From an uncultured Hyphomicrobiales bacterium (GTDB taxonomy: Bacteria; Bacteroidota; Ignavibacteria; Kapaibacteriales; UBA2268): 29,235 nt of DNA. The notes beneath the pieces are model-generated. The model saw nothing but the letters and a program-made list of their open reading frames with translations. It was not told the DNA's origin and ran no database searches. Every line of letters starts with the position of its first letter. Position 1 is the first letter of the stretch. Location of the stretch: contig CAYLSY010000001.1 of assembly GCA_964386275.1 (NCBI GenBank), positions 1-29,235 on the forward strand, in the 5' to 3' direction. Shown here in pieces: positions 7,141 through 29,235 of this stretch. The position numbers and the translations under genes were made by a program.

Positions 7141-8436
7141 TTAGCGAACAAGTTGGACTTTTACGACAGCTCGAGATTCTTCGATATAATCCACGCTTAT
7201 AGGCTTGGCAATGAAGATTATTTCGTACAAACCCTGCTGCGCAAATTCTGATGCATGAAAAGTAACCTCCCATGGCACGTTATCCTTGTTTCGAGGAATA
7301 AATACATTTTCCAATAGCTTATCAACCAGTTTTCCATTCAAGTCATAGACATTGCAGTTCATAGTAACATCTTCTTCGACTTTATATTTAATCGTTGTTT
7401 CCGAAGAAAACGGGTTCTGGTCTGCAACAGCCTCGATAATAATGGTCGTAGGAATAGTTAAGCAAGCTGTATCAATGGGGATAATCTTGTTTTTCAGGTA
7501 ACTAAAATAGCATAATTCGTAGCAGTATTCATCTCCTCGACTTGATACTCTATCGTAATAATAAGCATAGTTTCTACCGGGGTTACGGGTTCCCAAACCG
7601 ATTAATTCTGAATTCTGCTTATAGTTTGCAATAGTATCCTTGAACTTGACTCGAGCGCCGGAAATATCGCTGAAAGCCTTTTTTCCTCGAACAAGATAAT
7701 AGCCTGCATTGTATGCTTCCTGAATACTTCGCCATTCTATAGCGACTCTTTTATCGCCTACATAATAAGCTGTGAAATCAACCACTTGGTTCAATGGTTC
7801 TTTGGGTGGTTCGACAGTGTATTTGACATAAGTCAAGCTGGAGTCGTCCATTTCGAGATTTTCGTTGGTAAAGGCATAAACAATTTGGTCTCGAATCAAG
7901 CTGTCTTTGCTTAACTTTGCGGCACAAGCCTGAAAGAAGAACCAAGGTTCGCGGAATGCCAGATTAATATCGACTCGCGATTGGTCTTTTGATGCCAAAA
8001 TGAAAGTTCCCAATTTCAATGATGAATCGGTCGGAATAGTTTTACAATTTTCATATAGTTCGGGACCGGAAAAGACAATCATTAAGCGTCCAGGACGAAC
8101 TTGAGGTATAATATGGTAACTCAAGGGGTCTGGCGCATTTCCGGTGATGGTACCGGGCTGCAATTCCGATGTATTGCTTTCGTATGATAAAGAGTATTTA
8201 TCTTTTGTAATGATTTGAGTTGTGTCGGCAAAAACAATTTCGAAAGTGGCGTTGGCAAACCTGTCCCATGCTTCGCTATTGCGTTGAATATGCAAATCGA
8301 ATTGAATGCTGTCAATATTTATATAATTTTGATTTTTAATGGTAACGGTGGCAAGCAGTTCACGAGCATCTCCCTGAGCAGTCAGATTCAGGAAAGAAGC
8401 AAAAAAAAACAATATTACTAACGAGGAATACTTCAT
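7141..8436 (-). CDS. Secreted 431-aa protein: putative cohesin-like/Ig N-terminal domain plus T9SS type-A-like C-terminal sorting domain
   Basis: Signal peptide ends NLTA-Q. IEWRSIQEAYNAGYYLVR resembles the 'W.T..E.NN.GF' Ig module of FCB secreted proteins. C-terminus QNPFSSETTIKY..NVYDLNGKLV..QGLY..KVQLVR resembles the CTD (PNPF..TTI.Y, YD..G, GxY, terminal K/R). The cohesin-like assignment is weak. Confidence 0.7.
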   Translation of the reverse strand: MKYSSLVILFFFASFLNLTAQGDARELLATVTIKNQNYINIDSIQFDLHIQRNSEAWDRFANATFEIVFADTTQIITKDKYSLSYESNTSELQPGTITGNAPDPLSYHIIPQVRPGRLMIVFSGPELYENCKTIPTDSSLKLGTFILASKDQSRVDINLAFREPWFFFQACAAKLSKDSLIRDQIVYAFTNENLEMDDSSLTYVKYTVEPPKEPLNQVVDFTAYYVGDKRVAIEWRSIQEAYNAGYYLVRGKKAFSDISGARVKFKDTIANYKQNSELIGLGTRNPGRNYAYYYDRVSSRGDEYCYELCYFSYLKNKIIPIDTACLTIPTTIIIEAVADQNPFSSETTIKYKVEEDVTMNCNVYDLNGKLVDKLLENVFIPRNKDNVPWEVTFHASEFAQQGLYEIIFIAKPISVDYIEESRAVVKVQLVR

Positions 8437-8448
8437 AATAGGGCGTAA

Positions 8449-10602
8449 TTATTTCTTTTTGGGAACATTAGTTGAGCGACCACGGTTATTCCAAGTATAA
8501 TTCCAATCGCGAGTATTAATATTTCCGGATAAAGTCAAATCGGCATTTAAATAGTCAAAATTATCTGCTGCAGTGTTGTTTGGGTCGCTAATCACATCCC
8601 AGACGCCGATATAATCATCATTGTTAATGATTCCGTCGCCGTTTATATCTCCGGCAATCATTCCGTAAAGAAGGCTGTTGTCTTGGAATTTATGTAATGG
8701 CTTTACTGCTGTCGCTTGTCCGAACAGTATTGCCGGATTGGTAAAATCGACTGAAGTCGGATAGGCGCTTGGATACATATGAATCGGGTCGCCAGTGATA
8801 ACAGCCAAATGGGAACGGTGATGGACAGCTATATAATAATCACCTGAATCAATATTGCCCAATGTCGAGTTTTTCAACCTCAAAGGAGAAACGCCGTCCA
8901 AATCAACGATAGCGCCGTTTTTGCTGAGAAAGCCAATGCGATAGCGGGATTCGCCGCCAAGCATTTGCGTGCGGAACTCAACCAGAATCCAATCTACAAC
9001 GGAATCTGGTATCGAAAGCACTGTATAGCTTGTTCGCTGTGGGTCCATGTTATAAGGATATATATCAGGTGGGGTTAACGGAATCAGGTTCTTTTCCTTT
9101 AAATCGGCTGCCATTGAGCCGTTGCGGTACGGACCTTCCAAATAAGCTCGAGCAGACAACAAAAGCAATCCAGCAGAAGGGAATCCAATTGCAAAATCGC
9201 CATATGGAGTAATTCCCTCGACGTTAGCAAACGCCCAGTCAGTCGAAACATCGAACTGCGGAACGCTTGAATTTGTAAACTCGTTCCATTTATTGTCAAG
9301 GTAGCGCATTAGTTTTAAACTCGATAAATCCAGCCCTTTAACTTCATCCGTCGTCGGTGTGGAAGGAGTATACCGCCAGCCATAACCGAATGTAATTGTA
9401 ACGCCGCTTTGAATCAAACGGTCGTCAGCGTCGCGGGCTTCGAGCGCAAAGTGGCGCATCACTTTGTTTATGCTGCCATCGGGTAACGGCGAGTATTTAT
9501 ATGGTTTTGTTCGGAAAATTAGCGAGCGGGTGCCGTTTTTCGCTGTTTCATCAGGGAAATAGGCATATGTATAAATGTTATTAAATAGCATTTTTTCGCC
9601 GACTTTTAATACATTTCGACGGACAGAACCGTCGATTTCGGCATTGCTTGTTGCAAAAACCGGCTCTTTTTCGCTGTTCAGCGTCAAAATATAGCGCCTT
9701 TCATCAGTAGGTTCAGTCTTGATATAAGAAGACAGGAACAATTCGTTATTGACGAACACATTCGTATCGAGAACCAAGCCGCCGACATTTTCTACCCTTA
9801 AATCGTGTAGCACACTCGTATCGAGCGGTATTTCGGGACCCTGTATCATCTCGCCGTTGCCGGCATAATGCACCGAAACATTCGCCCCGAACTGCGGCGC
9901 CACCTGAATCGAAGCGCCCGAATGTCGCTCAATCAAAACAGAATCCTCCAAAACGATTTTTTCCGGCGCTGCGGCATTGCGAAGCTGCCCACGCGAAAGC
10001 GTCAGCTTCTCTTCGATGGCAAAGCCGCCGCCATGGACATTGACACCGAAAGGATTATCAATGTTCAAACGAGAAAATCGCCCATTGCCGTGCAGGTCTT
10101 GAGCAGCAGTATCATTGTTCATGCGGACATCTTTCGGTCCCTTGTATTTGGCAGTGTTGACTACTGCGCCCTTGGCATGGACATCAGGGGAGTTTATTCC
10201 TATCCAGCCGGTAGTTAATACCGTCGAATCTTCGATTATCAACGAATCGAGAACAACCAAATTTCGAACTTTGTTATTGATATCCTTTTCGTCCCGGATG
10301 ATTTTTGTGGCTTTATTACCAATTACAAGTTGATTATAAATAATGTTCGGAACGGATTGTTGACCGGACAAAGTCGGAGCAAGGAATTCAACCCTGCCGC
10401 CGATTGAATCTGGCATTCCCTTTACTTCACCACGCTTGACTCTAATTACTCCGGTCTTTCCATTAAAAATTTGACCGCTATTATCAAGCACATTTTGAGC
10501 CGCTAAGGTTCCATAAGCAATTGTGAAAGAAAGGAAATAAAGTAATATCCGAAAAATGGGTGAATTTAAAGAAAAATCTATATGTAGGGTTGTAATCTTC
10601 AT
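8449..10602 (-). CDS. Secreted 717-aa protein: beta-solenoid plus connector domain plus C-terminal LEGPY/dockerin-like Ca-binding module
   Basis: Signal peptide ends TLAA-Q. N-terminal part aligns by eye with the 736-aa neighbour. C-terminal ~235 aa has YLEGPY, VVDWILVEFR, GDYYIAVHHRSHL, GDINGDGIINNDD and degenerate ADLTLSGNINTRD. Confidence 0.8.
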   Translation of the reverse strand: MKITTLHIDFSLNSPIFRILLYFLSFTIAYGTLAAQNVLDNSGQIFNGKTGVIRVKRGEVKGMPDSIGGRVEFLAPTLSGQQSVPNIIYNQLVIGNKATKIIRDEKDINNKVRNLVVLDSLIIEDSTVLTTGWIGINSPDVHAKGAVVNTAKYKGPKDVRMNNDTAAQDLHGNGRFSRLNIDNPFGVNVHGGGFAIEEKLTLSRGQLRNAAAPEKIVLEDSVLIERHSGASIQVAPQFGANVSVHYAGNGEMIQGPEIPLDTSVLHDLRVENVGGLVLDTNVFVNNELFLSSYIKTEPTDERRYILTLNSEKEPVFATSNAEIDGSVRRNVLKVGEKMLFNNIYTYAYFPDETAKNGTRSLIFRTKPYKYSPLPDGSINKVMRHFALEARDADDRLIQSGVTITFGYGWRYTPSTPTTDEVKGLDLSSLKLMRYLDNKWNEFTNSSVPQFDVSTDWAFANVEGITPYGDFAIGFPSAGLLLLSARAYLEGPYRNGSMAADLKEKNLIPLTPPDIYPYNMDPQRTSYTVLSIPDSVVDWILVEFRTQMLGGESRYRIGFLSKNGAIVDLDGVSPLRLKNSTLGNIDSGDYYIAVHHRSHLAVITGDPIHMYPSAYPTSVDFTNPAILFGQATAVKPLHKFQDNSLLYGMIAGDINGDGIINNDDYIGVWDVISDPNNTAADNFDYLNADLTLSGNINTRDWNYTWNNRGRSTNVPKKK

Positions 10603-10721: not shown

Positions 10722-10780
10722 TTAAAATTAAATAAATTAACTCGAATCCGGCGGAGCTGTTTTGCAACCGCCGGACGAGT
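10722..10780 (-). terminator. Intrinsic terminator after the 736-aa gene
   Basis: Stem TCCGGCGG (10747-10754) / CCGCCGGA (10768-10775), extended by ACTCG/CGAGT across a 2-nt bulge, followed on the minus strand by TAATTTATTTAATTTT; ~32 nt after the stop. Confidence 0.75.
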
Positions 10781-10812: not shown

Positions 10813-13023
10813 TTATTGTCCAAGTATCAAGATACCTTCGTTGTTGAATGTACCTGCGTTTTGATAGTTTTGTGTGCCAAACTGAACAAGGTTTGAACCG
10901 GTTATGATGCTTGTAATCCACAAACCGTTCAAATCAGCTTGAGCTGTTGATTTGGGTAATGGAGTTGCGCCAATTGCAGCAACAGAAGCAGCATGGTTAT
11001 CGTTAATCAAAGTAAAGCCTGTTTCTTGCTTTGTCATAAGCACATTGTTACCGTTGTCTTCGTTGCCGATGATAAGAGCAGGATGATGATATCCATCGGT
11101 TTGGTCTGCAGGATTCGGGTCGTTCTGAATGGTAATCATATTAGCAATATAAATTTCTCCGCTTACAGGTGTATAGTGTGTTGCTTCAGGAGTAGTATTG
11201 CCTGATACTGGTGTTTCAAATGCGCCAGACGGAGCTGCAGTGATACCGGCATAAACAACGTGGCGAACGAATGCATTATCGTCTTCGGTCGGAACGGAGC
11301 CTTCATCCCAAGTATTCGGGTTTGTCCAACGACCGGCGGTCTTTGATATAAATTCGATGGGACCGGTGCGGAGCAAAATCTCGTGGCCGCTGGCAAAATT
11401 ACCATTTCCATTAGGAACATTCCCCGTAATTTCGCTTATACCTGACAATTCTGCATAAGCTAAAGTGTCGGCGGCAGCAGGCCCGCCATTAGTATAAGGA
11501 TTACCTGTACCCATTTTCTCAAGAGTACCTGCTTGGTCTTCATACATACGAACTCTTTGCCAAGTATGTAGAGCATCAGCAGGCCACCCATTATCTTCAT
11601 CATCGCGATAACCAACCGTTAAAGTAAGATTATCCGAAAAATCGCCGCCTGCGTTGCTAACATAAGAAAGGACAACTTTTCTTTTGACGTCGGTTGTCGA
11701 ATCAAAGCCAGTAGGAGGAAGGCCCGGTTGAACATTGAATGTCATTGAAGTAGGAACGTTAACGCCATCAGTAAAAGTCGCTTTTGTGTGCATGTTGTTA
11801 AACCGATAGCCCTCGGCGGGTTGACTTGCATATAAAATGTTGCGCTCGAAAGCGCCGACAACTTCTTCGACGTCGCCATAAGTAACAGCGCCGGCTGCGT
11901 TCAACATGTGCAGTGTATTTGTGCCCATCGCCAATGTATTAGCTACAGCTCCTGAGGTAGCAAAATTAAAGTCTTGGCAAATCCAAATATCACCCAATGC
12001 GACAGCGTCGCTGCCAATAAGATTCAAGCTACCGAATGGATTTGTAGTAACGGTAGCAACGATGTTTTGAGAAGCAGTGCCGTTATAAGTTAAAATTGAA
12101 GTACAATCAAAAGTCATGTTGGTAGCGGCGGCAAAAGCATTTGTAAATGCGCCGGTGATGATTAATTCAGCGGGAGTTCCTGTTCCATCACCCAAATGCA
12201 ATGTAGAACCGCCGGCTGCATCAGCTAAAGCAAGAGTGGCTCCGGCGCCGACCGTAACATCGCCCGAACCGTCGGGAATGTCTATATCACCAAGTGTTAC
12301 AGTAACATCGCCATTAAAGTCCGTTGTGCCAGCTCCGGCATGGATACCGGCATTTGCATTATCCAATGTTACAGTCCCGGTAAATGTAGAAGTTGCTGCG
12401 CCGAGTTGCAAATCACCAGTAACAGTAACATTTGCACTTGCTGTAACATTACTGACAACGGTAACTGTTTCTGCGTCGCGGATGGTTTTGACGCCACCGG
12501 AGAGGTCTAAGATGTTGTAATGTGTTCCACCGGTTGCTGTGCTTGTCGGGAAGATGTTTTGCGGATCGGTACCATCATAATAAATTGTTCCTGCATAAGT
12601 AACGTCTCCACCGGAAGTATAAAACGGCCAATTGTTCAAGTTATCATATCCTGTCAAGAAGGTTGCGCACTGAGTCCCAGTTATATGTACTCCGTCGGGA
12701 ACTGCTTTTGCAACTGTGCCAGTAAGTACAAGGTGTTCATAATAAGCGGCTTGAACCGGCTGCGAAGTGCCGCTTGTAGCTGCATATTCAACAGTGCCTT
12801 TAATAGAGTTACCGGCTGTACCCAATGGGGCAGAACCAGTAAATTTGTCGCTGGCGGCAGTGCTGCGGATGCGAATCACAGCGCCGCAAGATGCGTTATA
12901 AACGCCGAGCGAGTCAGTTCCATTGTTGTTGTTATGGAAGTTCTGCGCCAGCGCTTCGCCTGCGGTTAACCCTATAAACAAGAGCGCCACAAGGCATAAG
13001 TGAAGTAAATTGTTTCTTTTCAT
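10813..13023 (-). CDS. Secreted 736-aa beta-solenoid protein, single circularly permuted repeat unit; candidate major filament subunit
   Basis: Signal peptide ends EALA-Q. Contains solenoid rungs (GTIYYDGTDPQNI, ILTYNGTASQNI), a connector (EVVGAFERNI..FNN), a cap motif FISKTAGRWTNPNTW near aa 556, and ends FNNEGILILGQ. SD AAGGA 8 nt upstream; tandem stop TAA-TAG. Confidence 0.8.
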   Translation of the reverse strand: MKRNNLLHLCLVALLFIGLTAGEALAQNFHNNNNGTDSLGVYNASCGAVIRIRSTAASDKFTGSAPLGTAGNSIKGTVEYAATSGTSQPVQAAYYEHLVLTGTVAKAVPDGVHITGTQCATFLTGYDNLNNWPFYTSGGDVTYAGTIYYDGTDPQNIFPTSTATGGTHYNILDLSGGVKTIRDAETVTVVSNVTASANVTVTGDLQLGAATSTFTGTVTLDNANAGIHAGAGTTDFNGDVTVTLGDIDIPDGSGDVTVGAGATLALADAAGGSTLHLGDGTGTPAELIITGAFTNAFAAATNMTFDCTSILTYNGTASQNIVATVTTNPFGSLNLIGSDAVALGDIWICQDFNFATSGAVANTLAMGTNTLHMLNAAGAVTYGDVEEVVGAFERNILYASQPAEGYRFNNMHTKATFTDGVNVPTSMTFNVQPGLPPTGFDSTTDVKRKVVLSYVSNAGGDFSDNLTLTVGYRDDEDNGWPADALHTWQRVRMYEDQAGTLEKMGTGNPYTNGGPAAADTLAYAELSGISEITGNVPNGNGNFASGHEILLRTGPIEFISKTAGRWTNPNTWDEGSVPTEDDNAFVRHVVYAGITAAPSGAFETPVSGNTTPEATHYTPVSGEIYIANMITIQNDPNPADQTDGYHHPALIIGNEDNGNNVLMTKQETGFTLINDNHAASVAAIGATPLPKSTAQADLNGLWITSIITGSNLVQFGTQNYQNAGTFNNEGILILGQ

Positions 13024-13497: not shown

Positions 13498-16400
13498 TTA
13501 TTCACCCAGTTCAATAACTCCGTTATTATTTATTAATGCTGAATTTATGACATTTCCCCGAACCATAAGGGCATCTATTCCGTCAATAAAAACTGTTGCG
13601 CCGAGCGAATTTACAAAATTGCTTCTGACAAGCACTTTGCGTGTAACATTTTTTGTGCCAAAATTTGTTGTATATAATAAACCGTAGCCGTTTCCGGTAT
13701 CGGTTAAGTAGTTATAAAACAAATCAGGTACGATAGAAACATCCTGATTGTCGCCATAGAACTCGAAAATACTGGAAATCCCTATGTCATATACGCTATA
13801 ATTAGTAATGACATCAAACAAAGAGTTATTTGTCCCGCCTATCCTCATGGTTGCCCCATTAGCATTTGTCATGGTCCCGGCGCCGGTAATATTTTTTAAA
13901 GTGTATGACACAGCGTCCAACGTTCCGCTTAGGATACTTAAATTCGAGCTGATGTTAATATTTTTATCAATAATAACGGTATTATTTCCCGGCGCGCCGG
14001 AATTATTGATAATCAAAGAGTTTACTGTAGACGGCAAGCCGTTTCCAATGACTTGGTTAGCTGTTCCATTGTATTCGTAAATACCGTTTGTATTAAATTC
14101 TCTTGAAACGCTTGTTAAAATGTTGCCCGTTGTGCCTCCGAGCGCTGAAATGCCTTGCGTAGAGCCGATTCTGAGTGTCGATAGTTCACCAAAAGAGAAA
14201 TAGAGTCCGTTCAATGTGTTAGCGCCGCAATCAAGAGTGCCGGTATTAGCCGCTTCTGTGCCGAGAGCGACTCCGGCGCCGTCGCCAGCCCCGAACGGCG
14301 CATCGACATTAAGTGTAATAATATGGTTACCAACGCCATTAGCGCCGCCGCCGATAACGACGGAATCTTCCGGTTCGTTGGGCCACAATCCCGAACCGAA
14401 AATTTGGGGTCCAAGGTGGTCTTTTTTGTAAGTCCATGAATTCGGGTCATTCCATAACCCATCGCGCAAGCTGTAGAATATTCGCCTGAAAGCCTGTTCG
14501 CTGCCGGCAGTCCAATCTCCGTGCAGGTCTGAATATAGCGCATCGTCATAAGTTTGAAAATTCGGGCTGCCACCAAAATTGAACGAAAAACCATCTGCTA
14601 CGGTAAAAGTTTTCCATCTGCCGCCGTTAGTTTCTTTGATTGGACGCCAGCGGCCGGCTTTAACGAACTCCGTTCCAATAGTGTCTGTTAAATTGAAATT
14701 AAATGTAAGTTTTCCGTTTAATTTTGACGTCATTGTATCGACAACCCAATAACGTTGCAAATAGGATATTTCCGGTGTGGATGAAATCTTGAAATGCGCT
14801 CCCAAATTAGTCGGATGCGAACCCGGCGAAGTCCTGACTCCCATATACCCGCCGACAGCGCCGCTTTGAGCCAAGAAATCGGCTGGAGCATAGCTTTCGG
14901 TCGCTTCATAGAATGAGCCAACCGGGAAAGTATATGTCTTGGGTAATCCGGTTGCATTCATATTCCTTACCAAATATCCGCTTGTCTGGCTTGTCTTGAT
15001 ATATTTACCAGCGCCATAACCAACTATGCCATTTATATTGTCTGCATTTAGAATATAAATACTTGCGCTATCACCTAAGGTGATAAGGTTGTCGTTTGCA
15101 GTAAAATTCAATTGATTATTAACATAAAGATTAGCGTTGGCAGACGCATTTAAGCGATTAACCATCACATTACCACCGCTGTTCATATTCAGAATCAGAT
15201 TATGGAATGGAATCCCCGAGCTGTTGCCGATATTCACATTTTTCGTTCCGCTGCCGGCAAAGGTGATGTTGCTGGCATTGCCGGGATTAAACGTCGCGGC
15301 TCCCCAAGCAGAAATATTTCTATATAAGTTAATATTTCGATTACCGACACTTAAAACTCCGGAATTGCTTACCAAAGAATCACGTATTTTAAGTGTTTGT
15401 GCGCCGGGAAAATTTGAAATTGCTACAATTTGTATCGGATTATCGGCAATTAATGCCGAGATGCTGTCAGGCAAAGCCCTGCCAGTCGTTTGACCATAAT
15501 TAGGGTTGTTAGCATTAAAGATATATCGGCTGACACCGAACGAACGTATTTCCGTTTGAATACCACCGCCGGGCATTCCAACAGGCACAAGACCGTCGGC
15601 TCGCTGCATACCGAGCGTGCAGCTATCTTGCAGCTCGAATGTATTGCCGTAAATCACGTTCGAAACGCCGGTATTTGTCGTATCGAGAATATATAATTCA
15701 CCCGGCGGCAAATTTGCTGGATTTTCAACAATTACCGCCCTTACTTCAATTTGAGGATTCAAACCCGATGGGATATACACTTTTTTTCCATTGCCGATAT
15801 AGACTTTATCTGTCGTTACGAGCAATCCATTGTTAAAACCCGGATAACGGTTTGCCGGAGGAGTATTTTCAATTAAATAATCTGTTAAAGACCATGTATT
15901 AACGTCGTTCCAATATCCGTCGCGATAACTATAAAAACTTTGTCCTTCGGGTTCGGCAAGCAGAAAATCGCCGAAATGTTTGTTTCCAACTGATTTTACC
16001 GTAGAATCAGTTCTTGTTGTTGTATTGGTTATATACCATGCGGCTGGTATGGTATCCCAACCCGGCGTTCGGCGGAATTGCTCTAAGAATGGTAGCGTTA
16101 TATTTAATCCGATTGTGTCTCTCGGCAAAGTGTACTCTAAGGTTAAAGCAAACGAACGTGTCAAGGAATCCAAGACGAATCCGCCTTTATGGTTGATATT
16201 CCAATATCTTTGAATATTATTGTCGATTCTGCCCAAAGGATACAAATTGGTTATATCAGGATGCTGAACGTTATACGAGATTGCCCCGACAAGTCCGGCG
16301 GTGCCGCCGGTACCAGTAGTTTGGAAAATTACTGGACGGTAGCCGTATTCCAAAGTATCGTTACCAATCGGAAATAGCTTTGTAACCTGCCCTGTTTCTA

Positions 16401-19400
16401 TCCATCGATAAAGCCTGCCGTTAATATGTCCGGGACCATTTATAACAATTTCTGCGGCGCTTCCGCCGGAGGGACTGACTTCAACATATTTATTAAATGT
16501 TCTGGAATCGATTAAAGATTTATTTCCTAATGCAAATTCAAGATTATTGCGTACCACAATATTAGAATTGTCCGAAGCATCCAATCCGAGTTGAACCAAA
16601 CCGCTGTCGGGCTTGGCAATCTTCAAATTGTAAAACTCCAATGCTGCGCCAGTCGAATTGAACAGAGTTTGAGTATTACCCGAGCCGAAAAGTTCCAAAG
16701 TGCCTGCGCTCGAAGCAGATAATGTTCCATAGTTAATTAAATCGCCGCCTAAGGCAAGATTCCCTTGTATCTGCATTGTATGATTCACATCAATATAAGC
16801 GTCATTCAGTATTGTATCGAGGCTAATAAAGTGCGTTTGAGCAGCATTTCCGGGCGCGTTCGAAGCATGGAATCCGAAAATAGGCATCGTGCCTTTTAGT
16901 TTTATTGGAACGGCTCCTGCAGCAATGCTCGAATCGCCAGATTGAATAATGCCGCCGCGCATTTTCACTCCCGCAGCAGCATCGACATAATAATCCAAAC
17001 TCGCCTCGGCAGAGCCTTTGGCAACAATAATCCTGCCCCCGTCCATATTGAAAGTCGAACCGGCATTGCGAATGTCGAAGCCGATTCTATCGGCGCGGGT
17101 ATTGCCGATTCGCATAACCCGGGCAATACCGAATGTATCGATAGTAATATTAACTAAGGCTCCATCGGTCAAACGGGTAAAGCAGCCGGCTATATCTATA
17201 CTGCCGGAGAGTATATCAAATTTGCTGCCATCGGAATAAAAGAGACATTCATCCGCATTATTACCAACGATTAGGCTGCCACCATTTAAATAGGTTGTTG
17301 TGTTATAGCTTGCAACGATGTTAGTATCCGAACGCAAAGCGCCAGAGCGAATATCAAAACCGGAGCCGCTTATTATTGTCAAATTAGTATTGCCTTTTGC
17401 AATACACATCGTATCGGCAACCGTGTGACGAAATACGCCGCCGTTGGGATAGAACATGAAATTGGAAACAGTATCCGTTGCCAACGAAAATGTAGAGGAG
17501 GCGTTAATCAATGTATCGGTTAATCCGGTTTTCGTTAAAAAGACCTTAGGCAGTCTCCCCCACTTTCCGTTACCGGAAATTGTCGAGACACTGTCGCCGC
17601 CAAACTTGAGCGCAGTAAAGTTTGTGGCTGATTTATATAGGTTGATACCGTGTCCGGTCGATAGATTGATCAAATCCTGAGAAATTTTAAGAGTATCGTA
17701 ACGGTTTGCAATAGAAGAAGTATCGCCGATATAACCATTGTCTGCGTCGAGGAACAATGTGCGCATTTCGAGCGTTTTTATTGAAGGAGTATCACCAAAT
17801 AGCAGTCTGCCTGCGCCTGCTGCTGGGTTTGTGCCGCCGATTCGCAGCGAATCTATGCTGACATGTGCCGAATCCTTGAATACAATAATATGACCATCGA
17901 TGTTCACAGTATCGTTATTAAACAACATGCCGGGGTAATACGATGCGGCAGTGCCGGAATGCTTCAGTACCGCATCATTCGACCAATTGTATCGATTGTT
18001 CCAAACACCCGACTTAATGCTGTAAAACACGCGACCGTTGAAATAAACCAATGGATGCCCCGCCGTCCAATCGCCGTCGAGCCCAGGTTCTTGAACTACC
18101 GTAATCGGAGACGGCAGCGCAACAGGATTAGTACCCAAATTGATTTCCCAGCCGCCGGGAGTTTTGTGCCGACCGGGAATATACCAGTTGACATCGCCGT
18201 TGATGTCATAAACGCTGTAGCCGAATGTATATGTCGCCGGAAGCGTAGTATCTACAGTTATTCCAGTAGAGCTAACCCGCCAGTATTTGCTTAAAATGTT
18301 TTCGGTTAAGCGCGCAGGATGCTTTTCGGCTTTCAAAAGCAGCTTGATTGCTGCATTGCCGCTGTTTGTGCCTCGAAAATTAAATGATGCCGGATTATAA
18401 ATTGAATCTACTCCGACGGGAAAAGTAAAATTAAATGTTGTGCCTGAAAACTGCTTGGTTATTGTATCATTAAGTGAAATACCATCGACTTGGAACATTC
18501 TTTTACTGCTGAAAGAACCTGCATCAGGCGAAACGCTGCCCGTAGCGTTGAAAGTAAGGGTATTATTCGGATTCAAATATAAATTATTATCGGTGCTGAA
18601 CTTGAATACATTACCGACGGTAATATTATTCTCAAGATACACTTTTTCTGTCGTGGTCGGCTTGTTTATGGTGATTTTATTGAATGTTATGGGCTGAGAG
18701 CCGCGAATTGTGTCGCGCGAATCGCCCTTGAACAAGACTTCGCTGGTTTGGGCGTTGAAGCCGCCGATTGTATCATTGATAAAATCGCCCTTTATACCGA
18801 TTGTATAAGCGCCTGCATTCAAAATGCCGCTGATAATTTTCAACGAATCGGCACAAGTAACGTTTTTCGACAAAGTAACCTGTGGATTGACCGCGCCAGA
18901 GCGTGGCGATTGCACTATGAATGCGCCTACGTTTGCTGGCAAACCGTCGCCGGTGGTTTGTGCCGGCAGTGTATAGTTCGGATTAAAAATACGAATTGAA
19001 TAATCTTCAACTTCGCCGTAAGCAGGATTATCACATACATCTGAACCAGCAGAACTAGTGCTGCGGTACATTTTTACGCGCATTCTTGTCGTTCCGGGCA
19101 TATTACCTGAAGGTACTGTAAATGATCGAGACACAGCGCTTGACGAGGCTGTAGTTGCTGAAAATAATTGTTCGCCCGCATCGGTAAAATCACCATTCAT
19201 ATTGTAGTCTATCCAAGCTATCCAACGTTGATTTCTTGTGGTGCCGAAACCCGGCGTCATTGTTAATGTATAGCTTGAACCTGCATTTAAATTTGCCTGC
19301 TGGGATACATAGTATTCATAAGCCTGCGGGCTGACGCTAGCTCCTGAAGTATTGTCTATGCTGTGGTTTGCGTCAATGCCGGGCAGTTGAATGCGGGAAA

Positions 19401-22400
19401 TCCATTCGGATGAGTTATTGGCACCGGATGGAGTACAAATGCCTGAACCGCCTTCGGTATAAGGCGTAAACGGCGCAGTATATCCTTCGGCAGTATAAAT
19501 GAAGCGATTATCAAGAGTTTGGTCATAATAAGTGTAAGTAATAGGCCAAAGATTGCCTCTAAATGTTCCAATTCCCCTCAAACCATCTAAAGAGCCAACT
19601 TCCAAGGCGCCATTGTTTTCAATGTTGACTCCGAAGCAATAAATAAAATTAGTTCCGGTTGCCAGAGTACCGTTGTTTTCAATATTTAATGTTCTTAAAG
19701 CAGAATAATCGCGTCTATCCGAGCCATTTGTGCGGTTTCCGCTCCCAATGGATTTGTCGAGTACGACCCGCCGTCCGTTTCCAATATATGCAATATCAAA
19801 AAACTGAGTAGGCACGCGGCTTGCTGGCGGACCATCATAATCAACTTCAGACCATGTATTGACATCGAACCAATCGCCGTCTTGGCGCGACCAAAATGTA
19901 GTCGTTCCGGTTTCCAATGCCCTACCGGTTATAAAATCAGCCCAAAGTGTATCAGTATCAATTAGCGTTGAACCGTATGAACTTGCCGGCGCAGCATATA
20001 ACTTCACATTGACATCGCTTCCGGTATAAGTATATGTTCCGGTCGGGCGGTCTGCGCAAATATTAGTTCCGAAATTTGATTGTGTCGTCGTTTTATTAAA
20101 AATATTCCAATCATTATTTGCCCATGAATCAATATCAAAACAGCCCGGTACGGCTCCAAAGCGCAAATCCTGCGGATTTAAGAAAGTTAAATTAATATCC
20201 GTTGTCCTTGTTCCGAGCCTGAAAGTTGAGCCTTGAGGTTTAGTGGTGCGCCAAAATCGTTGTACCAGCCAAGCTGCATCAATTCCTCCGGCAGGCATTG
20301 AACCGAAATTCGGATGTTCACCGTCAACCATCGTTACAGCTAGATAACCCGCTGCTGGCGAACCTCCTGTGCCATTAAATGTTATTGTAATCGGACGATA
20401 GCCAATTAATGAATCCGTTCCAACGTGCCATGTAACGTTCGTTGGGTTTGCCGTGCCAACCCAGCGACGAAGCTGACCGTAAACATGACCCGAATCAGAC
20501 CTTGTCAGAGTTGCGCCGTTGTTGATTTGGATATAATTCGCAAAAGTCGGCGAAACCAATACGCCTTTGTTGCCGCTGCGGAATTGCAACAGGTTCGTTA
20601 TTGTAACCGGATTATCCCGAATAACAAGATTGCCTGCGGTTTTCTGCAAACGCAACTGGTAAAACGTTTGGGCTGCGCTCGATTTAATAGTATCTGCAGT
20701 CGCTCCGTTGAAATCGACGATATAATTATTTGGAGTAAATGCGCCATAATTAATCCAGTTGCCATTCACTGTCAAATTCGAACCGGCAGACAATGTGCCG
20801 CTTTGAATATAAAGGCTGTCGACAACGACAAGATTCGCTTTGTTGAACGTTACGGTATTCGACGCTTTGTTCACTTGCAAAGTGGCTACGGAATCCGGAA
20901 CGGCTTCGTTTGCTTGAGTTTGAGCATTAGTTCCGGTATAAATGAAATGCCCGCGAAAATGGCTGCCGTAATTATAATTGCGCGTCGAAAGCTGAATATT
21001 TCCGCTTCCGGCATTGGTTATGCCCGAAGCATGACCGATACCTAAAGCTCCGTTGCGCTTCAAACGAAATTCGCCTGTGCCGCTGATAACGTTGCTGCCG
21101 CAATATAGCGCTCCAGTTGAGTCTATTGTAACAATACCGGGATATGTTTCGGATAAATTTACATCAAGTGTTATGCTTTTATTGTTACCAATAAAAATAA
21201 GCGGATTACCCTGCGCCAACGGGTCGCTCGGAGCAAAAGCCGCCGGAGGACCGTCGTAGCCTTGTGTTGACCAATTCGCCGCTGTGGATAGATTTCCGCT
21301 ATTAATACTGTAAAAACTATATTGTCCGGGTTCGCCAACTGCTATAGTGCCGAGCGAATCGAGTCTGCGATATTGAACGGTAGAATCAGTAAGTGTTCCA
21401 ATCAACGGTTTAGATAAATACTGCGGTAAAATCCAATTGCCGTTCAAATCAAGCAAGCGAGGTTCGAAAAGTGTCCAGTTTGCACCGCCACGAAGGTCGC
21501 TTGTAGGGACATATTGTATCGTTGCATCATAAGTTCTGGAAAATGCTAAATTAAATGAGCTGCCGGCTGGCTTTGTGATAGACCATTGACGGGCAACGTG
21601 CTTTGAAGAACTCAATGCGCTACCAATGGGCTGAATAACTGTATTTGTTGTATTATCCCACGACAAAGGCGTGCTTCCAACCTGAATAGTATCACTCAAC
21701 ACATTCAAATAACCTGTCGTACCGCCGGTTCCGGTGGTTGTCATCGTCAGCGGAGTGTAGTTATGATTATGCCCGACTTCGAAAACAACGGTCTGAACGC
21801 CGGTTTTGAAAATCTTGCGTAATGAGCCGTCTATATGCCCCGGATTAGCCCCCGGCCTAGTAATTGTAGCTGTCGAATCGAGCTGCAGGTAACGTCCCCG
21901 TGTTCGCAAATTACCTTTGAGAAGCGAGATATTGCCGTTTGCATTAATAAAAATACCGTTATCGGCTGAAGAATAGCCGACGTATGAAGCGCAAACACTA
22001 TCGGGACCGTTTATTATCATGTTATAAAAATACTCGTTTCCTGAAGTGCGAGTCATTGTTTGCTTGCCGGTTCCTTCAAACGAAACGGTAGAATTTCCTG
22101 GCAAGAATGTTCCGCCTTGATTGAGCCAATTGCCCTTTAGCGCTAATAGAGTTGCATTTGGAGCGGTTCTCATCGAAAATTTCGTTAAAGTATCAATAAC
22201 GAAATTGCCGCGAATGCGCATCATGTCATTTGGACGTATATAACCTTCGCCAACAACTTCAACGTGATAAAACGGATTCGCAGAAGTGTCGCGAGACGTA
22301 ATCAAATTCGGTATCAATGGGTCGTTAGAGCTTGTTCGGAAGCGAACGGTATTAGTTCCTGGATTGAAAGAACCACTTATATTTACCCAGTGGCGCTGCA

Positions 22401-25400
22401 CTTCGAGGTTAAAACCATTTGATTCGAACGAAGCGTTATTGTTAATTGTCAAATCGTTCAAAATTATGACGGGAGTCGTTCCCGAACCAAGCAAACGCTT
22501 GGTTCCAGCGCTATCCAGCTTCAAATTAAAATATGACAGATTGAATACAGTATCAGCAGGAGCAAGCGGACGACAAGGAATGTCTTGGGTGGAACCGTTT
22601 TTATTGAAAACAACAGTCGAACCGTTTGTTTGGAAGCGCTGGCTGACGGGACCGGTAAATGTCAAATCTGATATATCCAAACTATTGCCGATACGTATTT
22701 CGCCTTGCGATTGAAGCGTTACAACACCAGAGACCGAACCGCTAATTTTCAAGTCGTAATAACGATTAACTGCAGGGGTAAGCGCAGAACTGGGTATAAG
22801 CGGATTGGCAATTCCGTGGAATGTTACCCTTCCGGCATTAAAAGTAGGTGCAGCATAATTCGCCGGAAAGCCGGTTCGCAGCAAAAGTTCACCGCCGGTC
22901 ATTTTAAGCGTTCGATTAGAGCTGCCGCCATCCATTGAGTAGCTGCCGACATCAAGGCAGCCTTGATTAATGACAATCGAATCATTGATTATGATAGCCT
23001 TGCTTAACTTTACGGTGTCAGTAAGCGCTCCGCCTTGAATTTTCACTACATTCACCGGCGATGGCAAGGCGTCTCCGGTTGTTTGAAGCGCCGCAGTCGA
23101 ATCGATAAACCGATAAGTCCCTCGTTGAGTAAAGCTACGCACAATCGTTTGAACAGCGCCGCTGTCCTGCTTTGTCGTTGCAAGCACGATTCCTTGCGGA
23201 TGGGCAATATCAAGTTCGCCGCCGTCATTGGCTAAAATAGTTGAACCTACTCTGAGAGTATCGCCGTGCATAAAGTTGCTGCCGAGGATACGAAGCCTGC
23301 CGGTTTTTGTAACGGTATTGACGACGCCTTTATCGACTATTACTGCATTGAAAGGCGCTGTGGCAGCCGAAACCGTAACGGTGTCACGAATGAAAACACG
23401 GTCGCTGCGTTTATTAGGCGCAGTGTTCGACGGATTGCCCGTGTATTCGAAACCGAGTTTAGACCACGTCGATGGATCGTTGTAGTCGCCGTTTTTTATG
23501 CTGTAATAATATGCTCTGCCTATGTTTTCTTCGCCAGCTACCCAATCACCGTTTAAAGAATCAGCCATTTGGGAATAAAAAAATCGAGCGCCCCAATTGA
23601 CTATATTGTTTGTCCTGCCGGGACCGACCTGCCAATATCCCAAAGGGTCGGGATATGATGGATGGAAATTCCAAACAAGATAATCAGCATCGGAGCCACG
23701 CACTTCTGTTTCGTGATAATAAAAAAACGCATCTAAAGAACGTATGGGTTTGAAAGTTAAATTCTCAGTCTTCATAACCCAATATTTTGTCAAAGAAGTA
23801 TTATTGGTTTCAACTGCAGGATGCTCCATAGGAATAGCCTTACATGAAACTGAAGCGTTCGGATAATACATAACGCTGTCCGGATGAAAATATACTGTTG
23901 ATGGCGTAAATACTTTGATAATGGCGGTATCTGAACCGGTTATTTGTCTTCCATAAGTTCCTATAGGGAAAAACAGATTTATAGGCGGTATCGGAGGAGT
24001 TATGTCTGGAGTAATCAATTTTTTAATTCTGCCGCAATCGGCAGTCCAACTCGGATTGAAAATCATCTTTTTGTTGTTAAAAGAAGTATCTGTTGTGGCA
24101 GCAGTAGAATAAATATCTCCGTTTGTGCCTATTGTCAAAGAATCAAGGTTAATATTAAATAATGTATTTGATACAAGACGCAAATTGCCGTTTACCGTAA
24201 CCGATGTGTCGAGAACGACTTGGTTTGTTGTATCGGAGCCGGCAATTTGTTTATTAATAGTCAAATTATTAAATGCGGTAGTAACAGCGCCTTGAATTCG
24301 TTGCTCAGGCAGTCCATTCATTGTAACGGTAGCAGCTCCGGCAGTGAAAGCCAACAAATCCGTTGTTGAGTTATTTATCCAATTGCCTCCGAGCGTAATA
24401 TTTCTATTGTTAGCGTCAAATCTGCCAGCGCCTGTTCCAGCTATTGTAATATTGCTTACAACGCTTAAATCATTGTTTATAATCCGAGCGATAGGGCTGT
24501 TCGTGCCAGTCATCAGCAAATTTCCGATTGCATGAGTTGTATTCAATCGATAAGTTTCAGCGTTATTACGGGCGTCGATTTTTACCGTACCGCCGGTTAC
24601 GTTCGAAGCTCCTGCAACTGAGTAGAACTCACCGTTTGCAAATGCGGAGGCTTGGCTCTTCAATACAATTTCGCCTGCTGAAGTATAAAAGGATGAGCCA
24701 GCCGAACCTAAATCGAACAAAGCGCGAGTTGCGCTTGTGTTTTGCGAGCCGTAACCAAGATTGATTGTTCCGCCGCTTTGAGTAAAACGCAGCGAATCGC
24801 TGTCGCTAGCATTACGCGAAAGGCGCGCATTAACGTTTAGCGTACCGCCTTCGACGGTTAATTGCGCCGCCGAAGAACCCGATTCATATAGTAAATTATT
24901 TTCGTTTGCGCCTGCACCAATGTTGATTGTTCCGTTCGTTAATCGAAGCAAGCCCTGAAGAAGCAAACTGGCATTTTGACCGGTGAAAATCACGTTTTCG
25001 TTATCGAGCCACAGCCCGGAATTGCTGTTTATTGTGTAATTTAATATCGAAAAGAAATTGTTTGTGAATGAAAATGTGCCGCCGATATGAAAAATACCCC
25101 TCTCAAGCGATAAAAACGGATTATTTGCCGAAAAAGCCGTCGAAAGCACATCCAATCTGTCATTTGCTGATGTTTTATTTAAAATAATATCGTAAAATTC
25201 GGTTGTCGTTCCAGTTCCGGAAATTTGTGCATTGCCGCTACCAATAAAAGAAACAGTCCCTTGAAGCGAAAATTGGTCACCATTATTAGTCCAGTTGCCG
25301 ATTATCGTAACATCGCCGTTTATATGGAAAATGCCGTTGTTCGTTAGCGAGCCGTTAATTTTAACTATTGCATCAGGACGTATTGAAACAACCGCATTAG

Positions 25401-25491
25401 GGCGGATATTGACTAAGCTCTGCCCAAATACTGCATTGAGTGCCAAGAATAGTAAAAATAGGATATATATATGTAATCTATTGAATGTCAT
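13498..25491 (-). CDS. Giant 3997-aa secreted repetitive beta-solenoid protein with six cap/solenoid/connector units and a GEVED domain
   Basis: Signal peptide ends AVFG-Q. Six cap motifs of type FYS...G.W....TW (codons near 23514, 21321, 19902, 18033, 15942, 14484), recurrent W.N.G.F...TV.F.G...Q rungs, and six connectors with F.VG/Y.P/HP/R.W motifs. Ends INNNGVIELGE with no recognisable CTD or beta-barrel. Confidence 0.9.
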   Translation of the reverse strand: MTFNRLHIYILFLLFLALNAVFGQSLVNIRPNAVVSIRPDAIVKINGSLTNNGIFHINGDVTIIGNWTNNGDQFSLQGTVSFIGSGNAQISGTGTTTEFYDIILNKTSANDRLDVLSTAFSANNPFLSLERGIFHIGGTFSFTNNFFSILNYTINSNSGLWLDNENVIFTGQNASLLLQGLLRLTNGTINIGAGANENNLLYESGSSAAQLTVEGGTLNVNARLSRNASDSDSLRFTQSGGTINLGYGSQNTSATRALFDLGSAGSSFYTSAGEIVLKSQASAFANGEFYSVAGASNVTGGTVKIDARNNAETYRLNTTHAIGNLLMTGTNSPIARIINNDLSVVSNITIAGTGAGRFDANNRNITLGGNWINNSTTDLLAFTAGAATVTMNGLPEQRIQGAVTTAFNNLTINKQIAGSDTTNQVVLDTSVTVNGNLRLVSNTLFNINLDSLTIGTNGDIYSTAATTDTSFNNKKMIFNPSWTADCGRIKKLITPDITPPIPPINLFFPIGTYGRQITGSDTAIIKVFTPSTVYFHPDSVMYYPNASVSCKAIPMEHPAVETNNTSLTKYWVMKTENLTFKPIRSLDAFFYYHETEVRGSDADYLVWNFHPSYPDPLGYWQVGPGRTNNIVNWGARFFYSQMADSLNGDWVAGEENIGRAYYYSIKNGDYNDPSTWSKLGFEYTGNPSNTAPNKRSDRVFIRDTVTVSAATAPFNAVIVDKGVVNTVTKTGRLRILGSNFMHGDTLRVGSTILANDGGELDIAHPQGIVLATTKQDSGAVQTIVRSFTQRGTYRFIDSTAALQTTGDALPSPVNVVKIQGGALTDTVKLSKAIIINDSIVINQGCLDVGSYSMDGGSSNRTLKMTGGELLLRTGFPANYAAPTFNAGRVTFHGIANPLIPSSALTPAVNRYYDLKISGSVSGVVTLQSQGEIRIGNSLDISDLTFTGPVSQRFQTNGSTVVFNKNGSTQDIPCRPLAPADTVFNLSYFNLKLDSAGTKRLLGSGTTPVIILNDLTINNNASFESNGFNLEVQRHWVNISGSFNPGTNTVRFRTSSNDPLIPNLITSRDTSANPFYHVEVVGEGYIRPNDMMRIRGNFVIDTLTKFSMRTAPNATLLALKGNWLNQGGTFLPGNSTVSFEGTGKQTMTRTSGNEYFYNMIINGPDSVCASYVGYSSADNGIFINANGNISLLKGNLRTRGRYLQLDSTATITRPGANPGHIDGSLRKIFKTGVQTVVFEVGHNHNYTPLTMTTTGTGGTTGYLNVLSDTIQVGSTPLSWDNTTNTVIQPIGSALSSSKHVARQWSITKPAGSSFNLAFSRTYDATIQYVPTSDLRGGANWTLFEPRLLDLNGNWILPQYLSKPLIGTLTDSTVQYRRLDSLGTIAVGEPGQYSFYSINSGNLSTAANWSTQGYDGPPAAFAPSDPLAQGNPLIFIGNNKSITLDVNLSETYPGIVTIDSTGALYCGSNVISGTGEFRLKRNGALGIGHASGITNAGSGNIQLSTRNYNYGSHFRGHFIYTGTNAQTQANEAVPDSVATLQVNKASNTVTFNKANLVVVDSLYIQSGTLSAGSNLTVNGNWINYGAFTPNNYIVDFNGATADTIKSSAAQTFYQLRLQKTAGNLVIRDNPVTITNLLQFRSGNKGVLVSPTFANYIQINNGATLTRSDSGHVYGQLRRWVGTANPTNVTWHVGTDSLIGYRPITITFNGTGGSPAAGYLAVTMVDGEHPNFGSMPAGGIDAAWLVQRFWRTTKPQGSTFRLGTRTTDINLTFLNPQDLRFGAVPGCFDIDSWANNDWNIFNKTTTQSNFGTNICADRPTGTYTYTGSDVNVKLYAAPASSYGSTLIDTDTLWADFITGRALETGTTTFWSRQDGDWFDVNTWSEVDYDGPPASRVPTQFFDIAYIGNGRRVVLDKSIGSGNRTNGSDRRDYSALRTLNIENNGTLATGTNFIYCFGVNIENNGALEVGSLDGLRGIGTFRGNLWPITYTYYDQTLDNRFIYTAEGYTAPFTPYTEGGSGICTPSGANNSSEWISRIQLPGIDANHSIDNTSGASVSPQAYEYYVSQQANLNAGSSYTLTMTPGFGTTRNQRWIAWIDYNMNGDFTDAGEQLFSATTASSSAVSRSFTVPSGNMPGTTRMRVKMYRSTSSAGSDVCDNPAYGEVEDYSIRIFNPNYTLPAQTTGDGLPANVGAFIVQSPRSGAVNPQVTLSKNVTCADSLKIISGILNAGAYTIGIKGDFINDTIGGFNAQTSEVLFKGDSRDTIRGSQPITFNKITINKPTTTEKVYLENNITVGNVFKFSTDNNLYLNPNNTLTFNATGSVSPDAGSFSSKRMFQVDGISLNDTITKQFSGTTFNFTFPVGVDSIYNPASFNFRGTNSGNAAIKLLLKAEKHPARLTENILSKYWRVSSTGITVDTTLPATYTFGYSVYDINGDVNWYIPGRHKTPGGWEINLGTNPVALPSPITVVQEPGLDGDWTAGHPLVYFNGRVFYSIKSGVWNNRYNWSNDAVLKHSGTAASYYPGMLFNNDTVNIDGHIIVFKDSAHVSIDSLRIGGTNPAAGAGRLLFGDTPSIKTLEMRTLFLDADNGYIGDTSSIANRYDTLKISQDLINLSTGHGINLYKSATNFTALKFGGDSVSTISGNGKWGRLPKVFLTKTGLTDTLINASSTFSLATDTVSNFMFYPNGGVFRHTVADTMCIAKGNTNLTIISGSGFDIRSGALRSDTNIVASYNTTTYLNGGSLIVGNNADECLFYSDGSKFDILSGSIDIAGCFTRLTDGALVNITIDTFGIARVMRIGNTRADRIGFDIRNAGSTFNMDGGRIIVAKGSAEASLDYYVDAAAGVKMRGGIIQSGDSSIAAGAVPIKLKGTMPIFGFHASNAPGNAAQTHFISLDTILNDAYIDVNHTMQIQGNLALGGDLINYGTLSASSAGTLELFGSGNTQTLFNSTGAALEFYNLKIAKPDSGLVQLGLDASDNSNIVVRNNLEFALGNKSLIDSRTFNKYVEVSPSGGSAAEIVINGPGHINGRLYRWIETGQVTKLFPIGNDTLEYGYRPVIFQTTGTGGTAGLVGAISYNVQHPDITNLYPLGRIDNNIQRYWNINHKGGFVLDSLTRSFALTLEYTLPRDTIGLNITLPFLEQFRRTPGWDTIPAAWYITNTTTRTDSTVKSVGNKHFGDFLLAEPEGQSFYSYRDGYWNDVNTWSLTDYLIENTPPANRYPGFNNGLLVTTDKVYIGNGKKVYIPSGLNPQIEVRAVIVENPANLPPGELYILDTTNTGVSNVIYGNTFELQDSCTLGMQRADGLVPVGMPGGGIQTEIRSFGVSRYIFNANNPNYGQTTGRALPDSISALIADNPIQIVAISNFPGAQTLKIRDSLVSNSGVLSVGNRNINLYRNISAWGAATFNPGNASNITFAGSGTKNVNIGNSSGIPFHNLILNMNSGGNVMVNRLNASANANLYVNNQLNFTANDNLITLGDSASIYILNADNINGIVGYGAGKYIKTSQTSGYLVRNMNATGLPKTYTFPVGSFYEATESYAPADFLAQSGAVGGYMGVRTSPGSHPTNLGAHFKISSTPEISYLQRYWVVDTMTSKLNGKLTFNFNLTDTIGTEFVKAGRWRPIKETNGGRWKTFTVADGFSFNFGGSPNFQTYDDALYSDLHGDWTAGSEQAFRRIFYSLRDGLWNDPNSWTYKKDHLGPQIFGSGLWPNEPEDSVVIGGGANGVGNHIITLNVDAPFGAGDGAGVALGTEAANTGTLDCGANTLNGLYFSFGELSTLRIGSTQGISALGGTTGNILTSVSREFNTNGIYEYNGTANQVIGNGLPSTVNSLIINNSGAPGNNTVIIDKNINISSNLSILSGTLDAVSYTLKNITGAGTMTNANGATMRIGGTNNSLFDVITNYSVYDIGISSIFEFYGDNQDVSIVPDLFYNYLTDTGNGYGLLYTTNFGTKNVTRKVLVRSNFVNSLGATVFIDGIDALMVRGNVINSALINNNGVIELGE
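18985..19440 (-). other. GEVED domain inside the 3997-aa protein
   Basis: CTPSGANNSSEWISRI...AWIDYNMNGDFTDAGE...FTVP...TTRMRV...YGEVEDY; the namesake motif is encoded at 19000-19017. Confidence 0.92.
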
Positions 25492-29172: not shown

Positions 29173-29235
29173 TACAAGCTCCAATTTTTTTTATTATATT
29201 AATATTACCTTAAATATTATCTTAGCAAGATTGCA

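Follow-up and report, generated by a model that had tools for sequence, protein, structure and literature searches.

The 736-aa protein P0001 is a one-protomer paralogue of P0002, the giant protein encoded beside it, built in the same register as the giant, and P0002, P0001 and the adjacent P0004 would probably form a split rod whose separate polypeptides are joined by docking of terminal beta-helix rungs. As we picture it, P0001 would be exported by the Sec pathway as a single protomer of a beta-helix family, whose protomer starts with N-terminal rungs and continues through a right-handed beta-helix, an Ig-like connector, and a Trp-rich cap to a stub of ~175 aa that ends in a conserved terminal rung. 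The C-terminal rung, being open, would stack on the equally open N-terminal rung of a neighbouring molecule, with the beta-helix continuing across the junction. Three consecutive genes would in this way yield one non-covalent rod in the gene order giant, P0001, P0004, and P0004, with a dockerin-like tail and no donor rung, would be last in the chain. P0001 could homopolymerise in such an arrangement, but the data do not demand it.

The window analysed here is an entire 29-kb contig, and its source genome is 86% complete and derives from anaerobic-digester metagenomes. The minus strand carries five co-oriented genes in the order P0003, P0002, P0001, P0004, and P0008 (Table 1), and the plus strand carries xseA and an RND efflux operon. 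Searches against Pfam and NCBIfam gave no match above cut-off for P0001, P0004, or P0008, the comparison of P0008 with Por_Secre_tail (Pfam) lying below the cut-off at an E-value of 0.043, and the sole domain found in the giant was GEVED (aa 2090-2166). Scans for sigma-70 promoters and for terminators returned counts near those of shuffled sequence. The giants are annotated in their sources as hypothetical or as GEVED-containing only, with no described function, and nothing about this gene cluster was found in the literature on Ignavibacteria and GEVED. An exhaustive search for the P0001 family yielded 191 cluster representatives, mostly of 700-850 aa, which correspond to about 190 clusters at 50% identity. 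Members occur in 20 of the 201 genomes sampled from the phylum, mostly in the same order and class. The family sits in conserved clusters of Ignavibacteria/Kapabacteria-type genomes and is uncharacterised.

Table 1. Minus-strand genes of the window and parts of P0001 and the giant P0002, with nucleotide positions in the window.
Feature	Position (strand)	Extent	Description or basis
P0003	(-)	1225 aa	fibre with weak C1q/BclA_C-like head
P0002, giant	13498..25491 (-)	3997 aa	about six P0001-like protomers in tandem
P0001 gene	10813..13023 (-), including stop codon	736 aa	ORF list and translation
P0004 gene	8449..10602 (-)	717 aa	P0001-type N-terminus, solenoid and connector; dockerin-like tail replaces cap and stub
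P0008 gene	7141..8436 (-)	431 aa	partner gene conserved downstream; weak signal for a T9SS C-terminal domain
P0001, putative signal peptide	12946..13023 (-)	aa 1-26	cleavage after A-L-A before Q27; read from sequence
P0001, N-terminal rungs of mature protein, predicted acceptor face	12862..12945 (-)	aa 27-54	complex-model interface
P0001, right-handed beta-helix body	11797..12861 (-)	aa 55-409	AF2 pLDDT mostly >90
P0001, connector, single Ig-like beta-sandwich	11359..11796 (-)	aa 410-555	DSSP strands; homologous to the giant's connectors
P0001, cap	11245..11358 (-)	aa 556-593	F-I-S-x3-G-R-W-x5-W-D-E-G-x2-P ... D-x3-V-R-H-x-V
P0001, stub body	10873..11244 (-)	aa 594-717	short solenoid, length constant across family
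P0001, C-terminal rung, predicted donor face	10816..10872 (-)	aa 718-736	ends N-N-E-G-I-L-I-L-G-Q
Giant, first protomer, collinear with whole P0001	22936..25491 (-)	aa 1-852	HHalign local and global
Giant, internal rung, proposed protomer 1/2 boundary	22936..22980 (-)	aa 838-852	resembles C-terminal motif
Giant, C-terminal motif	13501..13542 (-)	aa 3984-3997	HHalign with P0001 end

The AF2 model of P0001, built from an alignment of 108 sequences, has a pLDDT of 90.3 and a pTM of 0.87; a model from a four-sequence alignment reached a pLDDT of 50.6 and was left unused. Sequence and model together bear out the module order that the first-pass annotation had given for the 736-aa protein, namely solenoid, connector, cap, and short stub, and the cap falls where it had been placed (nt 11245-11358). 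The signal peptide is modelled as a helix over residues 4-25, and its A-Q junction is conserved in the family consensus. From the mature N-terminus onward, the right-handed beta-helix comprises ~14 rungs at about aa 27-409. The connector (model residues 410-555) gives weak matches to Ig domains (Z about 2). The cap is the most conserved segment of the family, at 2.64 bits against a mean of 1.54, and includes the invariant residues G564, R565, W566, W572, P578, and G593. The stub body is made up of short strands with a pLDDT of 69-95 and is the least conserved part of the family, at 1.10 bits. In a VIA-align comparison of residues ~27-415, the passenger of Vag8, tailspikes, Ag43, and an antifreeze beta-helix matched with Z scores of 10-13, with TpsA domains also among the beta-helix matches, and a Foldseek search against the PDB returned nothing significant.

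Homology between P0001 and the giant emerges at the level of profiles. By BLASTP the two proteins match at an E-value of about 0.03 or weaker, and a HMMER profile of the P0001 family recovers fragments of the giant only (best domain E 9e-9). When HHalign is used to compare a profile of the P0001 family (108 sequences) with one built from 27 aligned orthologues of the giant, the family matches all six units of the giant in solenoid-connector-cap order (E 7e-14 to 6e-6), and the P0001 cap matches all six giant caps. Judged from these profiles, the homology is clearly well beyond chance, as the first-pass annotation had supposed for the modules of the 736-aa protein and the units of the giant. 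The local alignment pairs P0001 residues 1-590 with residues 1-705 of the giant (E 3.9e-13, Prob 97.9, 473 columns), and the global alignment pairs residues 1-736 with residues 1-850 over 588 columns. At the other end, the final 18 residues of the two proteins align with each other (E 2e-4). When residues 545-736 are compared with the post-cap segments of the giant, the cap and these last 18 aa are the only parts to align, and the stub body alone (594-717) gives no alignment to the giant.

The shared C-terminal end is described by the motif N-x-[GA]-x-I-x-N-x-G-x-I-E-[IV]-G followed by 1-3 residues, which is present in all 108 family members and all 27 giants. In a scan of 2020 stop-to-stop frames of the genome, each 150 aa or longer, P0001 and the giant are the only two that carry it, and it is absent from P0004. 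A general sorting tag was considered as an explanation of the motif and rejected, since a genome-wide scan finds it in these two frames only.

These alignments bear on the central proposal of the first-pass annotation, that P0001 is a circular permutation of the giant's repeat unit. They do not support such a rearrangement: the N-terminus aligns with the N-terminus, the C-terminus with the C-terminus, and the global alignment is collinear, so that P0001 is not a circular permutant in the strict sense (termini of the query lying inside the homologue, and those of the homologue inside the query). The permutation is apparent because the unit of the giant had been taken to start at the cap, and a rotated P0001 fits this cap-first unit because a tandem repeat can be read in any phase. 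As the giant also starts with solenoid, connector, and cap and ends in the same motif, P0001 is, on the sequence comparisons, a paralogue that corresponds to one protomer and shares the giant's register. Its place in the protomer family is given by collinear solenoid-connector-cap homology together with the terminal motif.

The giant starts with a signal peptide, solenoid, and connector and reaches its first cap only at aa 662, with the remaining five caps at aa 1393, 1866, 2489, 3186, and 3672 (cap-to-cap spacing 473-731 aa). BLASTP shows that its units are mutually related (E-values down to 2e-17), and its C-terminal end consists of a cap, a stub, and the terminal motif found in P0001. The rung at residues 838-852 is kept in all 27 orthologues as D-S-L-V-I-N-x-G-x-L-D-L-[GS] and lies 180 aa from cap 1, the distance from cap to terminal rung in P0001 being 170 aa. 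The 27 orthologues span 3814-4819 aa at 32-45% identity, and where the cap motif was detected the caps stand at conserved positions, four to seven per protein. The giants are an old, fixed architecture. With regard to the 'GEVED domain-containing' giants of Ignavibacteria/Kapabacteria as a known class, they are true homologues of P0001 that share its protomer architecture, cap, and C-terminal motif and adjoin P0001-like genes; they differ from it in having six or seven protomers and a GEVED insertion in unit 3. The seventh unit of the 4819-aa giant P0170 was considered as a candidate giant-P0001 fusion and set aside, the unit not being specifically P0001-like. The earlier description of the giant as a pre-fused six-mer holds in so far as the giant consists of about six P0001-like protomers that match P0001 in register, but these units have diverged and are individually conserved, and are not copies of one identical subunit.

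Docking of the two ends of P0001 is suggested by a complex model. A fragment of residues 27-330 modelled with a fragment of residues 540-736, using the family alignment, gave ipSAE values of 0.90, 0.90, and 0.91. The best among three controls reached 0.00, these controls being unrelated proteins with no beta-helix ends, so that generic end-on stacking is also compatible with the result. Of 80 solved complexes, 58 attained the ipSAE mark of the P0001 complex, as did 2 of 110 mismatched pairs. The predicted interface involves residues 27-33, 37-45, 47-54, 60, 75-76, and 123-124 of the N-terminal fragment and residues 634, 670-685, 703-712, and 718-736 of the C-terminal fragment; it therefore sits at the natural termini of P0001, away from the artificial cut at residue 330. 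We infer that the modelled contact of the C-terminal rung with the N-terminal rungs would lie between molecules, because the single Ig-like connector appears too short to return the stub ~90 A to its own N-terminus and because the donor rung in natural fusions meets a different protomer. Several matches in the ESM Atlas, to long beta-helix proteins, extend over the helix and into the stub without a change of order, which would fit a stub lying along the axis of the helix. The complex model, the fusions, and the giant's rung 838-852 support in substance, if indirectly, that the C-terminal and N-terminal rungs belong together, and to this extent the head-to-tail joining put forward in the first-pass annotation is supported; this does not extend to the homopolymerisation of P0001 that it also entailed.

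The natural fusions come from six cluster representatives in other metagenomes (P0098, P0104, P0105, P0114, P0123, and P0141), each of 1451-1581 aa. In these proteins a complete P0001-like protomer with its terminal motif comes first, and a P0004-like protomer follows 3 residues later. In P0123, for example, positions 23-748 of the family HMM fall on residues 11-767, and the whole mature P0004 (residues 28-709) matches residues 746-1447 by BLASTP at an E-value of 2e-42. P0004 itself is related to P0001 (family HMM E 1.4e-16), the mature N-termini of P0004-like proteins and of giants resemble that of P0001, and the P0004 tail gives weak EF-hand and dockerin hits. The order of protomers in the fusions is the gene order of P0001 and P0004 in the window. 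In its contig, one fusion gene has a P0008 orthologue immediately downstream, and P0008 orthologues come after a P0004-like or fusion gene at three loci (L002, L003, and L007). Two other genomes keep the gene order giant, P0001-like, P0004-like, P0008-like. Fusion and fission pairs of this Rosetta-stone type are a classical sign that two proteins act together physically. P0001 and P0004 fit this pattern, with two neighbouring genes in the window and one ORF in other genomes; unlike the usual case, the fusion point here is a structural repeat boundary, rung to rung, and the fusion thus also suggests the geometry of the contact.

The composition of the fusions bears on whether P0001 could be the major subunit of an open-ended head-to-tail homopolymer, with the giant as a pre-fused six-mer of that filament, which we consider unlikely. 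The modelled complex is homotypic, has the natural termini at its interface, and separates from its controls (0.90 vs 0.00), and P0001 aligns with the first protomer of the giant, whose rung 838-852 is motif-like at a matching distance from the cap, all of which a homopolymer would accommodate. There is also a precedent in curli: CsgA solenoids stack head to tail, R5 docking on R1 by sheet augmentation so that the solenoid is continuous, and 4 to 62 repeats occur in natural CsgA homologues, subunit length varying by repeat fusion (PMC10192328). Yet the fusions join P0001 to P0004 and not P0001 to P0001, and no two-protomer P0001-P0001 form was found among the best 150 of the 191 representatives, where no protein of that length has the donor motif at its end. 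In a fused P0001-P0004 the acceptor end is present and the donor end is missing, and in those genomes exactly one P0001 module would thus be added. The six units of the giant differ in the length between caps and are each conserved in the 27 orthologues, and the likeness of the P0001 and P0004 N-termini means that the homotypic model may reflect cross-compatibility. The heterotypic fusions favour the split rod of giant, P0001, and P0004 over an obligate homopolymer of P0001.

It is also improbable, in our estimation, that no assembly takes place and that P0001, P0004, and the giant act independently as surface adhesins related by paralogy, in which similar ends are inherited rungs for folding or capping, or a signal for export or anchoring, and the modelled interface is an artefact of bringing together two open beta-helix ends. 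Paralogy by itself accounts for shared termini, and the controls of the complex model were not beta-helices. The N-terminus, as the predicted acceptor, is of only average conservation (1.61 vs 1.54 bits). The four large proteins have no recognisable outer-membrane export signal, so a terminal signal would be needed somewhere. Alignment across the junction gives this reading further room. A P0001 profile rotated to place the C-terminus before the N-terminus crosses the junction in one alignment with residues 657-1407 of the giant (E 3e-17), but profiles in which the columns of the stub, the N-terminus, or both were reversed score 141.8-153.1, compared with 150.1 for the unreversed profile. Because the reversed segments keep nearly the full score, the alignment is not sequence-specific; it reflects matching lengths only and was rejected as evidence for a specific junction. 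A junction-only profile matches the giant in unit 1 only (score 25.6, E 0.006). Against independent adhesins, the complex model picked the natural termini over the raw cut at residue 330, the fusions retain the motif inside the chain, where C-terminal signalling is impossible, and both the conserved gene order and the gene fusion point to physical cooperation.

A more far-reaching form of the split rod is tentative and, on balance, we would not yet expect it to hold in full. Here the three genes would supply a surface shaft of ~5,450 aa, with products that come together again outside the cell as their open solenoid ends dock rung on rung. Evolution would toggle between fused and split states with one, two, six, or seven protomers per polypeptide, and rod length could be set by the addition of more than one copy of P0001.

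Of known surface systems, curli offers the nearest principle, the docking of open terminal rungs, which on the P0001 side is model-based. The contact that corresponds to head-to-tail stacking in CsgA is that of the C-terminal with the N-terminal rung in the fragment model, and would be intermolecular on geometric grounds. P0001 differs from CsgA in that its right-handed beta-helix is large and three-sided and shares a protomer of ~700 aa with an Ig-like connector and a cap; it has no Pfam match to curlin repeats (PF07012), and no CsgB- or CsgG-type genes lie near it. The autotransporter and TpsA adhesins (Vag8, Ag43, UpaB, pertactin, HMW1, and EtpA) are likewise secreted, elongated right-handed beta-helices and supply the best structural matches to residues ~27-415 (Z 10-13). 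Unlike them, P0001 has neither a C-terminal beta-barrel nor a TPS domain, and at 9-13% identity the resemblance is at fold level only. The type Va translocator PF03797 is absent from P0001, whose C-terminus is modelled as short solenoid strands, and the TPS domain PF05860 was not found in P0001, nor a TpsB-like gene among the window ORFs scanned. As modelled, the likeness to the HMW1 and EtpA secretion domains is that of generic beta-helix. A T9SS sorting domain (PF18962/TIGR04183 or type B) was likewise not found in P0001, including residues 540-736 at E-values up to 10.

If docking occurs, a conserved, unannotated cluster of anaerobic-digester bacteria of the Ignavibacteria type would represent a new way to build a long extracellular fibre, in which large beta-helix protomers with a lateral Ig domain join by complementary terminal rungs and fused and split forms mark the joints. 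The solenoid-stacking principle of curli would then extend from small amyloid repeats to adhesin-sized modules, defined docking ends would become available for protein engineering, and a family of about 190 clusters with no Pfam model would gain its first functional handle. If docking does not occur, the recognition that the permutation is a phase artefact and that P0001 is the one-unit paralogue of the giant would still be useful. The cap may resemble the start of the G8 domain, for which P0001 itself has no match (PF10162). Two distant homologues of the giant carry precomputed PF10162 hits.

P0008, a 431-residue protein encoded in the same orientation as the rest of the cluster, is a possible anchor for the system. 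In all contexts seen, the gene for P0008 follows either a P0004-like gene (P0004 being the 717-residue neighbour with a dockerin-like tail) or a gene fusing P0001-like and P0004-like protomers in a single reading frame. The sole domain signal in P0008 is a weak one. The T-R-D-x-N-x2-W-N-N-R tail of P0004 is common to P0004-like proteins and to the fusion proteins (6/6). An array of P0001-like genes, related to the 736-residue one-protomer beta-helix protein, was found in one genome of the same class, and copy number and fusion state therefore vary widely. The hairpin that follows P0001 was not picked up by the terminator scan because of its loop length; it could act as a terminator separating P0001 from P0004, and the sequence downstream of it is A/T-rich.

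The GEVED domain of the giant (P0002, 3997 residues) is an insertion within unit 3, and the terminal-rung motif has an internal copy shortly ahead of it, near residue 1959. Giant orthologues P0170 (4819 residues) and P0182 and P0183 (about 4580 residues) are longer by about 600-800 residues. P0170 has a seventh cap, its extra unit showing no specific likeness to P0001, and P0182 and P0183 carry precomputed G8 (PF10162) matches.

At its C-terminus, the fibre-like P0003 gave sub-threshold matches to the BclA_C, C1q and T4 gp5 trimerisation domains. Its counterpart at locus L002, from another genome, is ~51% identical across a 111-residue stretch and has a precomputed PTL_trimer match. The cluster extends in related genomes into genes for a WD40 beta-propeller protein and an OmpA-family beta-barrel protein, in place of which an RND efflux operon adjoins the cluster in the window; here a WD40 homologue is encoded on a different contig.

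Coordinates of features in the window and in other genomes
Feature	Location	Strand	Remark
P0008, 431 aa	window 7141-8436	minus	only a weak match to a T9SS C-terminal domain (E 0.043)
P0008 counterparts	L002 26900-28201; L003 18982-20268; L007 9935-11230		
P0004 end	window 8500-8660	minus	dockerin/EF-hand-like loop, T-R-D-x-N-x2-W-N-N-R tail
Hairpin	window 10748-10774	minus	GC-rich; 7-bp stem, 13-nt loop; ~40 nt past P0001 stop codon
GEVED domain (PF20009), giant aa 2090-2166	window 18994-19224	minus	E 2e-19
P0003, 1225 aa	window 25507-29184	minus	C-terminal trimerisation-type matches below threshold
Tandem P0001-like array	G181:C4:240676-251240		at least 5 ORFs, 534-1497 aa
WD40 protein with T9SS C-terminal domain, and OmpA-family protein	L002 28201-31514; L003 20276-23557		
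WD40 homologue	G000:C79:1678-3483		separate contig from window
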